Counted from the stretch's first letter, positions 19,707 to 22,845 are shown. The stretch: DNA of 64,000 nt from Cyanobacteriota bacterium (GCA_025356295.1 JANXUJ010000102.1:5480-69479), one strand, 5' to 3'. The notes: generated from the sequence alone by a model not told the origin. A program made the numbers and translations.

Positions 19707-20516
19707 TTACACCGCCTCTATGCCAGTTAATGTGGCAGGATTTTCTGAGATTGCCGAAATTGCACCACGATACAAATTTTGTAAATTTATTTCATAGGAA
19801 CCACCGCCACGCATCAGGGTAATTCCCTTTCCTATTTCAGCCGAATGACCATAATTGATAAATACTTCTTCAACAAGAGAACGATTAACTAAAGTCGCCT
19901 GTTGCCTGTTTGGATTGGCGTTCAGGATTACTTGTGATGTGTCGCTGATATCCCAGTTGAAAGGAGTTGCAAAGCTAATCTCTTTGGCATCTGTTGGGAG
20001 TGTGGTTACTTCTTCACGCACACTGCCATAAATTGTTACCCTGTCTGTCCCTTCTAGCAGCCCATATCCTGCTGATGTTATTTGCGCGCCGATTAAGCAA
20101 TCATTTGAAGTGTCAAAGCTAATGTTGTCGGTGAAGTATGGGAGTAAATTCACCTGATAGTAAGGTAGTCGATTTAGTAATGACACATCAAAGATCGGCT
20201 GCCAATCGACCCGCGCTGTTCTAATGAAAAATGATATTTGTTTACGCGGTGCTTTCCATTCCATATCGCGCAAAGCGACCAGCCTCTCTGTTCGTGACGC
20301 GTCTGCATCCAAATTAGGCATATCAGCTTCTACTATCGAATCAATATCAACCTTCATTCGCAGAGAAGTAATGAACCCATAAAATCGCAAAGTAGACACG
20401 CGATCATAAGGCGATGTTGCCGAGGGCTGATAAATAATTCTCATGGCTGAATCGCCTTGAGAGAAAGCGGTCAAGATTTGTTGAGTACGCGAATAAGTCT
20501 GCTGAAGTTCTGTCAT
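19707..20516 (-). CDS. Two-domain beta-rich protein (putative capsid/spike)
   Basis: C-terminal domain similar to 22516-22845. Confidence 0.6.
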   Translation of the reverse strand: MTELQQTYSRTQQILTAFSQGDSAMRIIYQPSATSPYDRVSTLRFYGFITSLRMKVDIDSIVEADMPNLDADASRTERLVALRDMEWKAPRKQISFFIRTARVDWQPIFDVSLLNRLPYYQVNLLPYFTDNISFDTSNDCLIGAQITSAGYGLLEGTDRVTIYGSVREEVTTLPTDAKEISFATPFNWDISDTSQVILNANPNRQQATLVNRSLVEEVFINYGHSAEIGKGITLMRGGGSYEINLQNLYRGAISAISENPATLTGIEAV

Positions 20517-20716
20517 TTTTGTTGCTTTAGTAAATATTCGCGTTCTTTCATTAACTGAGAATAAACAGCCTCTTTACTCATCGCAAGCTCTTTCGCTAAT
20601 CGCACCAATAGCCGACCTCTCGGTACATATTGGTAACTCTTGCCAAAATGCCAACGCTTTCGAGAAATTGCTCTTTTACTGCAAGTCGATAAGCGTGAAT
20701 AGACTTTTAATTCCAT
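20513..20716 (-). CDS. Small basic protein, possible HTH regulator
   Basis: RLAKELAMSKEAVYSQL; first gene of the leftward operon. Confidence 0.55.
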   Translation of the reverse strand: MELKVYSRLSTCSKRAISRKRWHFGKSYQYVPRGRLLVRLAKELAMSKEAVYSQLMKEREYLLKQQK

Positions 20717-20911
20717 GTTTACAAAAATTTATAAAGTATTTATAAATGGCTAGAAAAGTATGCGTCTTACGATAGAACCCATTGGGTTCTATCTATACTC
20801 GTCTGTACTATCGTAGCATCTTGCATATCTGCAAAACACTATATGTAGTGTTTACTTTTGCGGAAAATGCGCTAGATTCGTTGTGATGTTTCTACATATA
20901 GCATAACTGTC

Positions 20912-21265
20912 ATGGCTGATTTAAACTTTTCTCAATTAAATACTGCACTTGGTCAAACTGCATTTAGTGTTTCAGGTGCAAATCTCACAATCGATTTACA
21001 AAAGTTGATGGGGGAAAGTGCGATCGCACTCACTGATCAAAAAGTTGCTGAGTTCCTTACGAATTTGCTTGATGTTGCTAGCGATGCAGAGATTGCGTAT
21101 AACGCTAATCCAGCTAATACAACTAAGTTGGCAAGCTACGCTAGCCCAGTCTCAGGAATTCCTTCGACTGATCTGGCTACAGGCAATTTCTATGTTTCTT
21201 CGACTTATTCTTTTAGCAGCCGTGCGCCTCTGAATAAAGCGGAGACAACTGCTGTAACTGCCTAG
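20912..21265 (+). CDS. Ala/Ser/Thr-rich putative structural protein
   Basis: 117 aa, first gene of the rightward operon. Confidence 0.6.
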   Translation: MADLNFSQLNTALGQTAFSVSGANLTIDLQKLMGESAIALTDQKVAEFLTNLLDVASDAEIAYNANPANTTKLASYASPVSGIPSTDLATGNFYVSSTYSFSSRAPLNKAETTAVTA

Positions 21266-21316
21266 AGCCTTTTCTAGTCAGGTTTCTAAGTAACACTTTA
21301 TTGATAGGAAAAAATA

Positions 21317-21937
21317 ATGAGATCTAGATTAGTTTATGTGGGGCTTGAAGCGCCTTATGCAGATCACAAATACGGCTTCAGGACTACCATTGAGGCAAGT
21401 AAAGGCACAACTTTGGGGCATCAAGTGCTTGATGCTACTACTCCTGTAACTGGATTGATCTTTGGAGCCAATTCTCCAAAGCCCAAACGCGCATCTAAGA
21501 CTTTTGCCACAGGCACAAATTCGAGCTTCATTGCCCCTTCAGCAATTGTCGCGGCTGTTGCGGCAGGTTGGGATATTAGCAAAGCAAAGTCAAATGGAAG
21601 AAAGAACCCCTCGCGGTTCCAAGTTCCTGTTTACGTTACCGTCAACGGTGTTAAGTATGCATGGGCAATGCGTAAAACCCAGTTAACTAAACTTGGAGCT
21701 AATCTTCAGGCTTTAGGTATCAAGAAGGTTGTAGGGACAGAAACAGATCTAGTTTTCGGTGCTTCTTTCCCAAAACCTCCTAGAGTGAAGTCAATTAGCA
21801 TTCAAGGGAAGGGCGATAGTGCTACTTCTGTCAATTCAAGCACTTTCTACGATCCTTCTAATGAAAGTTCTCTCCCTGCGGAGTTTGGTCGTTATGCTGG
21901 TTTGTTTAATGCTGCGGACTGGGCAACTGTCGTATGA
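21317..21937 (+). CDS. Hypothetical protein built from two tandem homologous halves
   Basis: LIFGANSPKPKR...NSSF vs LVFGASFPKPPR...NSSTF. Confidence 0.65.
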   Translation: MRSRLVYVGLEAPYADHKYGFRTTIEASKGTTLGHQVLDATTPVTGLIFGANSPKPKRASKTFATGTNSSFIAPSAIVAAVAAGWDISKAKSNGRKNPSRFQVPVYVTVNGVKYAWAMRKTQLTKLGANLQALGIKKVVGTETDLVFGASFPKPPRVKSISIQGKGDSATSVNSSTFYDPSNESSLPAEFGRYAGLFNAADWATVV

Positions 21938-22143
21938 TGAAACGTCTTATTCTTACCCCTAATGACCCTGAGTTTTATCAAATTTTAAACGGCAATCTGC
22001 CTTTCGATTTTGATGGCTCTCAATGCGTTGTTAAACGTGGATCAGGTGTACTTGACACCGTATCTTTTGAAGATGCGATCGAGTATGCGTTAGGGGGAGA
22101 ATATGATGAGGTTGATGATGATTTTGATGAAGAATTAGAGTAG
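21934..22143 (+). CDS. Small acidic hypothetical protein
   Basis: LILTPNDPEF N-terminus, D/E-rich tail. Confidence 0.6.
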   Translation: MMKRLILTPNDPEFYQILNGNLPFDFDGSQCVVKRGSGVLDTVSFEDAIEYALGGEYDEVDDDFDEELE

Positions 22144-22150
22144 GAAGGAT

Positions 22151-22495
22151 ATGAGCGACTGGCTGTATGCTACCAGCGAGACTTTTAGCGCTGTAGGGGA
22201 CAGTGTCGATCTATCTTTTCTATTCTCTTCTCAGGTCATCGCGATCGATATTAATTCGCCTCAAAAAAAAGCCTCTTGGAATAAGGCAGGGGACATCATT
22301 CAGATCATCGATTTAGAGCTTCTTGACAGTTTTTTTACTCGGCTAGAAGTTTCTGATTCTTATAGCTATGTGGGGTTCAATCCTACATTAATCAAGTTTC
22401 AAATTGTATCTGGCAATAATTATCGCCTCAGATTTAAGCCTACCCAATGGCTCACTAATTTTTCAATTACAGTCTGGCAATATTTCGGTCAATAA
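22151..22495 (+). CDS. Small beta-rich hypothetical protein
   Basis: IAIDI..SWNKAG..YRLRFKPTQWL..ITVWQY. Confidence 0.6.
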   Translation: MSDWLYATSETFSAVGDSVDLSFLFSSQVIAIDINSPQKKASWNKAGDIIQIIDLELLDSFFTRLEVSDSYSYVGFNPTLIKFQIVSGNNYRLRFKPTQWLTNFSITVWQYFGQ

Positions 22496-22515
22496 ACAAT
22501 AATTGGTGATAACAC

Positions 22516-22845
22516 ATGGCTCTATATCTACAAGCTTCAATACCAGCAAATCTTGATTCTACGCCTAGCTCAATAGCAACAACGACTACTGTTACTGTTG
22601 GTACGGCTGCGACGCAACTATTAGCAGCAAACACTAATAGAAAAGGATTTTCTGTTTTTAATAACAGCAACCGCACTATGTATTTAGGCACTGGCAACAC
22701 TGTTTCAGCAACTGCCAACTTTTTTGCAGTTGTTCCTGCAAATACTCTCTATGAATGGAGCTTAGCAACTCTATATACGGGGGCTATTTTTGCGATCGCC
22801 AACGGGGCGGGCGCTTCTTCGCAAATTCTTGAGCTAACTCCTTAA
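22516..22845 (+). CDS. Small beta-sandwich-like putative virion protein
   Basis: LLAANTNRKGFSVFNNS...YEWSLATLYTGAIFAI. Confidence 0.6.
   Translation: MALYLQASIPANLDSTPSSIATTTTVTVGTAATQLLAANTNRKGFSVFNNSNRTMYLGTGNTVSATANFFAVVPANTLYEWSLATLYTGAIFAIANGAGASSQILELTP

Follow-up and report, generated by a model that had tools for sequence, protein, structure and literature searches.

The 64,000-nt stretch analyzed here (GCA_025356295.1 JANXUJ010000102.1:5480-69479, from a Cyanobacteriota bacterium; hereafter the window) contains an element integrated at a tRNA-Thr gene, with a structural module made up of two divergent operons (15007-23088). Three of its proteins are the main subject here, namely protein A in the leftward operon and the open reading frames (ORFs) B and C in the opposite one (Table 1). 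Profile comparison revealed that the approximately 90 C-terminal residues of A are homologous to B, even though the two genes lie on opposite strands, and the domain they have in common, termed here the B-type domain, is a portable virion-associated module shared with tailed phages. Our favoured reading, held with moderate confidence, places A, B, and C among the virion-associated beta-sandwich proteins of small (16-21 kb) virus-like replicons that form an undescribed family in filamentous cyanobacteria.

The relation between A and B had been proposed in the initial annotation of this DNA. In a single BLASTP comparison, residues 197-258 of A aligned with residues 35-96 of B (29% identity, E 1e-3), which is exactly the stretch quoted there. 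As this score is marginal alone, family alignments were built from 43 homologues of A (103 were found) and 11 homologues of B, and their comparison by hhalign bore the proposal out with a probability of 97.3% (E 1.8e-11, 98 columns), or 97.8% (E 7e-13) when A was trimmed to its C-terminal domain. In an all-against-all hhalign run of 14 module families, 89 of the 90 other pairs stayed below 3% probability, the sole other high pair (93%) being the 265-aa and 120-aa (w120) proteins, the former of which shares a 50-column segment with the latter, encoded upstream of it. Moreover, a hidden Markov model (HMM) of the B family matched, across 30 loci, almost all A homologues at their C-termini (E 1e-5 to 1e-10), with 6e-7 for A in the window.

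The AlphaFold2 (AF2) model of A, computed from the 43-sequence alignment, had a mean predicted local distance difference test score (pLDDT) of 88.8 and a predicted template modelling score (pTM) of 0.60. It supports the assignment of both domains as beta-sandwiches; the beta-rich character of the N-terminal domain, previously read from the sequence, was thus recovered in the model (Table 1). The two domains are suggested to be loosely coupled, since the linker block (residues 171-180) had a pLDDT of 65 and the pTM is only 0.60. A Foldseek search of the PDB with this model returned predominantly viral jelly-roll capsid proteins, including those of Macrobrachium nodavirus (MrNV; 6h2b, E 1.2e-4) and Singapore grouper iridovirus (SGIV major capsid protein, E 7.6e-4, template modelling (TM) score 0.24), the turret/penton protein of Sulfolobus turreted icosahedral virus (STIV; E 8e-4), and, also among the top matches, birnavirus VP2, a jelly-roll of the shell-plus-protrusion type. 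The N-terminal domain matched single jelly-roll capsid proteins of a tymovirus and satellite tobacco mosaic virus (STMV) with probabilities of 0.93-0.99 (TM 0.36-0.37), and further matches comprised the double jelly-roll protein P2 of PM2 (E 1.1e-2, probability 0.54, TM 0.22), the phiCjT23 capsid protein (probability 0.60), and the non-capsid two-sandwich proteins XepA (6.5e-4, probability 0.97) and PNGase F. TM-scores against solved structures were low throughout (0.2-0.37), and the term jelly-roll, as applied to A, is therefore a statement of fold class and not of homology. Among the predicted viral structures in BFVD, the whole of A matched uncharacterised or uncultured Caudovirales proteins (5e-6), and its C-terminal domain matched small phage proteins of 87-138 aa (TM 0.59-0.84). 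The latter include an 87-aa protein of Pseudomonas phage tf (TM 0.84) and the 138-aa protein A0A5Q2W7E1, on which the domain superposed with a root-mean-square deviation of 1.4 Å over 90 columns at 26% identity. One further structural match, a 291-aa protein of the Synechococcus phage S-SRP01, was set aside, being without a B-type domain by HMM.

The same structural matches bear on the view that the element is a tailless icosahedral, possibly membrane-containing virus, with A as the major capsid protein (double jelly-roll or shell-plus-protrusion) and B and/or C as the penton. The two successive sandwiches of A within 269 aa, a size near that of the PM2 P2 chain, would suit this view, as would the many jelly-roll capsids in the Foldseek list, double jelly-roll proteins and the STIV vertex protein among them; a small paralogue of one jelly-roll would likewise suit a penton, and XepA, one of the best matches of A, forms a jelly-roll-like pentamer resembling penton capsomers (PMC8812541). 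However, the double jelly-roll matches are weak (probability 0.5-0.8, TM 0.19-0.24), no P23-77 entry occurs among the 50 best PDB matches of A, and the low pTM, like the soft linker, speaks against a rigid double-barrel capsomer. We consider this view unlikely, and the genomic evidence below bears on it further.

To trace the B-type domain beyond the window, the B-family profile was searched against 1.84 billion cluster representatives (clusters at 50% identity), yielding 7,456 clusters at E ≤ 1e-3, of which 251 reached E ≤ 1e-10. The domain spans about 90 residues with a conserved motif, N..R......N ... E, near the C-terminus. Among the 150 best matches listed, in proteins 84 to 881 residues long, the matched region reaches to the C-terminus or stops a few residues short of it, and its position is equally terminal in the window proteins (residues 183-268 of 269 in A and about 25-109 of 109 in B). 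PHROGs 30212, 33692, and 22789 overlap the domain, all labelled 'unknown function'; no Pfam model matches it, and neither A, B, nor C gave a Pfam match even at E ≤ 10. When the profiles of A and B and the 603-aa protein of the module were searched against PDB sequences, only chance-level matches were returned; a set of 50,697 phage records contained no tblastn match to A, B, or the 603-aa protein, and a literature search found no paper describing the domain or the element family.

Long members of the B-type family carry discoidin or concanavalin (ConA)-like lectin domains. In a siphovirus-like contig, the gene of the 1,789-aa member P0265 immediately follows those of the tape measure and two distal tail proteins, with a pectate-lyase-like protein and then an amidase encoded downstream, and the gene of the 881-aa member P0125 shares a tailed-phage contig with those of a portal, a tape measure protein, a beta-helix protein, and a protein weakly matching the XepA family. 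Among shorter members, one of 136 aa is encoded in a 36-kb viral contig, two genes beyond the major head gene, and another of 144 aa is an unannotated ORF in a podovirus genome. Three tandem B-type domains (residues 178-257, 278-359, and 371-457) were observed in P0139 (L037 10001-11386), with the last copy terminal. No ordinary host gene with the domain was found among the contexts examined, so that the prospect of a mainly non-viral host domain, raised in the initial annotation, was not borne out: contexts were viral or virus-like wherever they were examined. These contexts therefore indicate a portable virion-associated domain, which is best read as a surface-exposed module with a putative binding or fibre-capping role.

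A comparable modularity was found for C. Several proteins of about 200-220 aa elsewhere consist, by alignment and HMM, of a C-homologous N-terminal domain followed by a C-terminal B-type domain. One of them, P0122, matched C at 28% identity (4e-9) and B at 47% identity (3e-24; BLASTP), and thus C and B are two modules of one chain elsewhere. Sister elements have an extra gene of about 110-123 aa between C and B. A relation of C to the N-terminal domain of A, which would make A and C plus B full paralogues, was rejected (hhalign probability 0.3%). The junction of the C-B fusions is marked by an MPL/MPI motif resembling the start of the 120-aa protein. In L003 (4143-16579; JGI 3300079869), which represents a second, smaller integrated family of about 12.5 kb, a C-B fusion is followed by a transmembrane protein and then by an endolysin (phrog_181, 2.5e-26) that was missed by Pfam and detected by PHROGs. 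The overlap of this family with the window element is limited to the C-B protein, the HNH protein, and the N-terminus of the primase; its 633-, 194-, 140-, and 118-aa proteins and the endolysin are its own. The Nostoc loci L031 and L032 are arranged in yet a third way, having two B-like genes and a single C-like one.

Relatives of the window element were compared across 28 cyanobacterial genome loci and several metagenome contigs (numbered with the prefix L); the family is widespread in Pseudanabaena, Leptolyngbya-like genera, and Nostocales. The compared loci share an invariant core consisting of the 117- and 206-aa proteins on one side and A and the 603- and 511-aa proteins on the other. Replication modules are interchangeable, with primases of either the VapE or the DUF3854/D5_N type (DUF3854/D5_N/DUF5906 in L002 and L040), and the presence of an integrase varies. 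Two slots are hypervariable, namely the gene after the 511-aa protein and the C/B region. The former begins with MP[IV][SFDE]NP in 18 of 19 loci and then diverges over lengths of 84-302 aa, so this start looks like a docking peptide on interchangeable fibre or adhesin bodies. In L022 and L025, the MPISNP-slot protein carries Peptidase_S74 (6.6e-12), the intramolecular chaperone of fibre proteins, and matches many tail-fibre PHROGs; similarly, the C/B slot of L007 holds a protein matching the tail-fibre phrog_4492 (7e-41). B itself is confined to a few relatives of the A-type elements, where it lies in this swap-prone slot. An FtsK/HerA-like P-loop ATPase of 371-554 aa was present only in L002, L007, L008, L010, L017, L041, and L044, with packaging, transfer, or partition as candidate roles; the L002 copy lies at 15316-16617, and the copies of several relatives have a predicted N-terminal membrane segment.

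An episomal circular form exists for a relative of the element. L042 and L043 (JGI 3300080909 and 3300081798) are 16,821-bp contigs from different samples with the same sequence circularly permuted, and a terminal overlap of 127 nt in L042 closes a circle of 16,694 bp. This circle has no integrase or host genes and is syntenic with the whole window element save the integration genes. The ends of L002 (1-30 and 16721-16750) overlap by 26 nt within a 34-nt perfect palindrome (GACTTTAAAGCTTGGCTAGCCAAGCTTTAAAGTC), which is compatible with, though no proof of, a circle; the palindrome probably broke the circle assembly. In addition, L044 is a circular plasmid of 20,757 bp (NZ_CP064893.1, Tolypothrix sp. 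PCC 7601 plasmid unnamed14) with distant homologues of A (5466-6239) and of the 603-, 511-, 206-, 69-, and 67-aa proteins, a free B-type protein (7811-8122), and an FtsK/HerA-like ATPase (13323-14513). As L044 also pairs A with a free B-type protein, the pairing is conserved across cyanobacterial orders.

The annotation of L044 as a non-mobilizable plasmid, in a culture strain, speaks for an element without virions, either plasmid or integrative, whose A, B, and C would be secreted or cell-surface beta-sandwiches with a role in adhesion, exclusion, or lysis like that put forward for XepA/YomS. The transmembrane-bearing FtsK/HerA-like ATPase of some relatives recalls DNA-translocation ATPases, and the occurrence of a small paralogue of the C-terminal domain alongside the larger protein parallels XepA/YomS, with XepA being one of the best structural matches of A. 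We nevertheless judge such an element improbable, because Peptidase_S74, the tail-fibre PHROG matches, and the endolysin adjacent to the C-B fusion in L003 are virion or lysis signatures; moreover, relaxase, partition, and type IV secretion genes were not seen, and a sequence link to the XepA family is absent.

Under the favoured reading, in which A, B, and C belong to virions of the replicon family, A would be a universally conserved structural subunit, the N-terminal jelly-roll-like sandwich of which probably anchors it in the particle, be it in the shell or at a vertex, and the less confidently modelled short linker would bear an outward-facing C-terminal B-type sandwich. B would act as a free-standing copy of this C-terminal domain, and C and B together as the two modules of an accessory adhesin, made as a single polypeptide in other elements, in the slot that tail-fibre-like proteins fill in sister elements. 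The B-type domain, which in tailed phages ends lectin-bearing fibres, stands alone beside head genes, or occurs in tandem, most likely binds a cell-envelope ligand or caps and oligomerises the distal end of a fibre.

Several observations weigh against this reading. The universal core proteins (117, 206, 603, and 511 aa, and A) had no Pfam, PHROG, or PDB sequence match, and the case for virion association is therefore carried by the accessory slots and the fold class. A scan of IMG/VR with A recovered only B-type domains, in large tailed-phage contigs, with no full-length relative of A, and none was present in the GenBank phage collection INPHARED. No endolysin was recognisable in the window element. 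The contigs of four metagenomes contained no excision joints, with the depth of the element being close to that of its flanks. Furthermore, the two domains of A are equally conserved (0.63 versus 0.625), which is unlike a fast-evolving receptor-binding tip, so that a structural or docking role fits better. To these are added the low TM-scores of A and the plasmid annotation of L044. As for the depth, assembler word depth over 8400-24325 was 16.2 against 14.6-14.9 in the flanks in metagenome run X1, and 15.4 against 13.6-13.8 in run X2; this excess of about 10% could reflect a few extra copies, or nothing.

Terminase, portal, and HK97-type capsid genes were sought. None was found by Pfam or PHROGs in the structural module (15007-22845), by Pfam in nine other proteins of the window element, among 44 diverse homologues of the core proteins, or in the precomputed Pfam annotation of L042, although very divergent versions could escape such sequence-only searches. 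A PHROG scan of the 44 homologues (of the 511-, 206-, 117-, and 603-aa proteins) gave nothing consistent, modelling of the 603-aa protein by AF2 gave low confidence (pLDDT 61, pTM 0.28) and no Foldseek match below E 0.17, and an FtsK/HerA packaging ATPase is absent from both the window element and the complete circle L042. For a tailless virus, a complete 16.7-kb genome without the large terminase subunit (TerL), portal, and HK97-type capsid is a favourable sign, together with the several membrane proteins and with A being universal and evenly conserved, and jelly-roll virus groups without a packaging ATPase do exist (the Odin and FLiP groups; PMC5894146). Against it stand the missing ATPase and, where one is present in relatives, its N-terminal transmembrane segment, the occurrence of B in few relatives in a swap-prone slot, which is unexpected of a penton, and the placed B-type relatives, which are fibre-position or head-adjacent proteins of tailed phages. 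The earlier proposal of small jelly-roll virion proteins stands in part: A does consist of two beta-sandwiches whose best Foldseek matches are jelly-roll capsids, but a capsid of the P23-77/IN93 or PRD1 type is not sustained, given the missing ATPase, the lack of P23-77 among the top 50 matches, the weak double jelly-roll matches, and the placement of the B-type relatives. A more far-reaching and rather doubtful possibility is that the A-bearing replicons form a new lineage of non-tailed double-stranded DNA viruses infecting filamentous cyanobacteria, with A as a shell-plus-protrusion capsid protein, packaging that needs no dedicated ATPase, and host-recognition modules (the B-type domain and S74-chaperoned fibres) exchanged with tailed phages; this subunit architecture is so far known from RNA viruses.

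The borders of the window element are defined by attachment (att) repeats, identified by k-mer search and alignment, of which 68 nt are exact and about 100 nt align with mismatches (8367-8467 and 24265-24363), giving a repeat period of 15,896 bp (15.9 kb). The features in and around it are listed in Table 1. The recombinase at the same position in L038, L040, and L041 is a 365-aa protein carrying XisAC_N/XisAC_2nd. Among the proteins of the structural module, the 265-aa protein is a probable host-recognition part, the 206-aa basic protein, with its internal repeat (LIFGANSPKPKRASKTF and LVFGASFPKPPRVKSISI), may bind or condense DNA, and the 72-aa protein is possibly holin-like, judging from its sequence features.

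Table 1. Features of the integrated element in the window, with positions counted from the first nucleotide of the window
Feature	Position	Strand	Basis or remark
attL	8367-8467		Copy of the 3' 46 nt of tRNA-Thr plus downstream hairpin; exact core 8400-8467
Excisionase-like small DNA-binding protein	8559-8825	minus	Pfam DUF1233 'putative excisionase', E 1e-3, below curated cut-off
Primase/helicase with VapE-like domain, 883 aa (replication module)	9047-11698	minus	Pfam VapE-like_dom, 3e-68
Small HNH endonuclease upstream of primase	11593-11898	minus	Weak Pfam HNH match; 93% identical in L042, 61% in L003
Cro/CI-type helix-turn-helix regulator	13479-13736	minus	Pfam HTH_19/HTH_26/HTH_31
265-aa variable distal protein	15007-15804	minus	Only in Pseudanabaena-type relatives, diverged there
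120-aa protein, N-terminus MPISNP, variable remainder; fibre/adaptor slot	15808-16170	minus	Slot comparison across loci
511-aa universal core protein, glycine-rich transmembrane region	16176-17711	minus	In every A-bearing locus long enough
603-aa universal core protein	17708-19519	minus	82 homologues, all cyanobacterial or metagenomic
Protein A, 269 aa, conserved two-domain all-beta protein, predicted structural	19707-20516	minus	103 homologues, AF2 model, Foldseek
A, C-terminal B-type beta-sandwich, residues 183-268	19713-19970	minus	8 strands; hhalign, HMM, structural match to A0A5Q2W7E1
A, N-terminal jelly-roll-like sandwich, residues 7-171	20004-20498	minus	8 strands and one helix (DSSP of AF2 model)
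67-aa basic protein, first gene of leftward operon	20513-20716	minus	Conserved in L002, L013, L044
117-aa universal core protein	20912-21265	plus	Locus comparison
206-aa basic universal core protein, internal repeat	21317-21937	plus	Sequence, locus comparison
69-aa acidic protein, conserved beside 206-aa gene	21934-22143	plus	Locus comparison
ORF C, 114 aa	22151-22495	plus	Homologue of N-terminal half of C-B fusion proteins
ORF B, 109 aa	22516-22845	plus	Stand-alone B-type domain, ~25-residue leader; phrog_30212 match, 2.7e-7
72-aa protein, one transmembrane segment and coiled coil	22870-23088	plus	Sequence; homologue in L006, L010
Tyrosine recombinase (integrase), XisA/XisC type	23075-24184	minus	Weak Pfam Phage_integrase match
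attR	24265-24363		Overlaps 3' part of tRNA-Thr
tRNA-Thr (CGU), integration target	24318-24389	minus	ARAGORN

To the left of attL, a relic ORF (5893-6414, minus strand) has the 3' end of an HNH gene fused to an internal segment of a VapE-type primase. Its peptide is nearly identical to part of the 883-aa primase, and the ORF probably remains from an earlier copy of the element. Breaks or divergence of metagenome contigs were also seen at 6656-6950.

An integrase, an excisionase-like protein, and a VapE-/D5-type primase form a set typical of satellites. Together with the 16-kb size, the fibre modules common to tailed phages, and the lack of detected capsid, portal, and terminase genes, this set raises the alternative of a phage satellite without a capsid of its own, in which A, B, and C would be add-on fibre or decoration proteins that remodel or re-target the virion of a helper tailed cyanophage. 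We regard this as quite improbable. The element has a conserved 8-kb block of about 12 genes, including two membrane-associated proteins of 500-600 aa, which has no known counterpart in P4-like satellites, phage-inducible chromosomal islands (PICI), capsid-forming PICI (cfPICI), or PICI-like elements (PLE), and satellite families are not known to carry their own fibres. In addition, no small terminase or cos-related gene was seen, and some relatives are circular episomes lacking an integrase, while another is stably maintained as a plasmid of a cultured strain. Pfam and PHROG scans did not detect the satellite marker genes sid, psu, terS, ppi, and cpm.

The family is best described as one of temperate or episomal virus-like elements with jelly-roll-like virion proteins, with a real chance of its being a new virus lineage; if particles are made, it would be an unrecognised type of cyanobacterial virus. 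The presence of a relative on a plasmid of the culture strain Tolypothrix PCC 7601 makes the question of particles testable at the bench. Moreover, the B-type domain occurs in more than 7,000 clusters (50% identity) on phage fibre or head-proximal proteins, and the window supplies a high-confidence model and a compact genetic context for it.

Among known systems, the C-terminal domains of phage fibre and receptor-binding proteins include sequence homologues of B and of the C-terminal domain of A, and their long members carry lectin domains and occupy fibre positions. The difference is that the domain here is mounted on a jelly-roll-like N-terminal domain (A) or stands alone (B), and that the 16-kb window element has no recognisable tail genes. 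XepA/YomS of the Bacillus prophages PBSX and SPbeta (PDB 6i56; PMC6834076) offer a parallel in the pairing of a two-sandwich protein of about 280 aa with a small protein resembling only its C-terminal domain. However, the TM-score of XepA to A is only 0.24, and XepA sits in the lysis cassette of a tailed prophage. A sequence link was rejected: the XepA family profile (Pfam PF27453) gave no hit to any of the three proteins at a cut-off of E ≤ 10, and a protein for which a weak XepA-family match had been precomputed scored a probability of 0.1 by hhalign.

The capsid proteins of MrNV, birnavirus (VP2), tymovirus, and STMV were top Foldseek matches to A, and those of MrNV and birnavirus resemble it further in that their jelly-roll precedes a second beta domain. 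All of these viruses have RNA genomes and eukaryotic hosts, however, and with TM-scores of 0.2-0.37 and identities of 9-12% the likeness is one of fold class only. The PRD1/PM2/STIV-type and P23-77/IN93 viruses share with the present family two beta-sandwiches per chain, similar genome sizes (16-21 kb), integrated and episomal forms, and the swapping of replication modules between relatives (PMC5894146). They differ in that the structural matches to the PRD1/PM2/STIV type are weak and the window element and L042 have no packaging ATPase, that the window element lacks a run of small membrane-protein genes, and, for P23-77/IN93, that there is no adjacent pair of VP16/VP17 type, with A in the operon opposite C and B, and no packaging ATPase beside the A, B, and C genes in the window element. 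P4-like and PICI satellites and Prochlorococcus tycheposons resemble the window element in tRNA integration, a tyrosine recombinase, a VapE-/D5-type primase, and small size, whereas the window element has in addition a large conserved uncharacterised module with fibre parts, and its relatives occur as integrase-less circular episomes.

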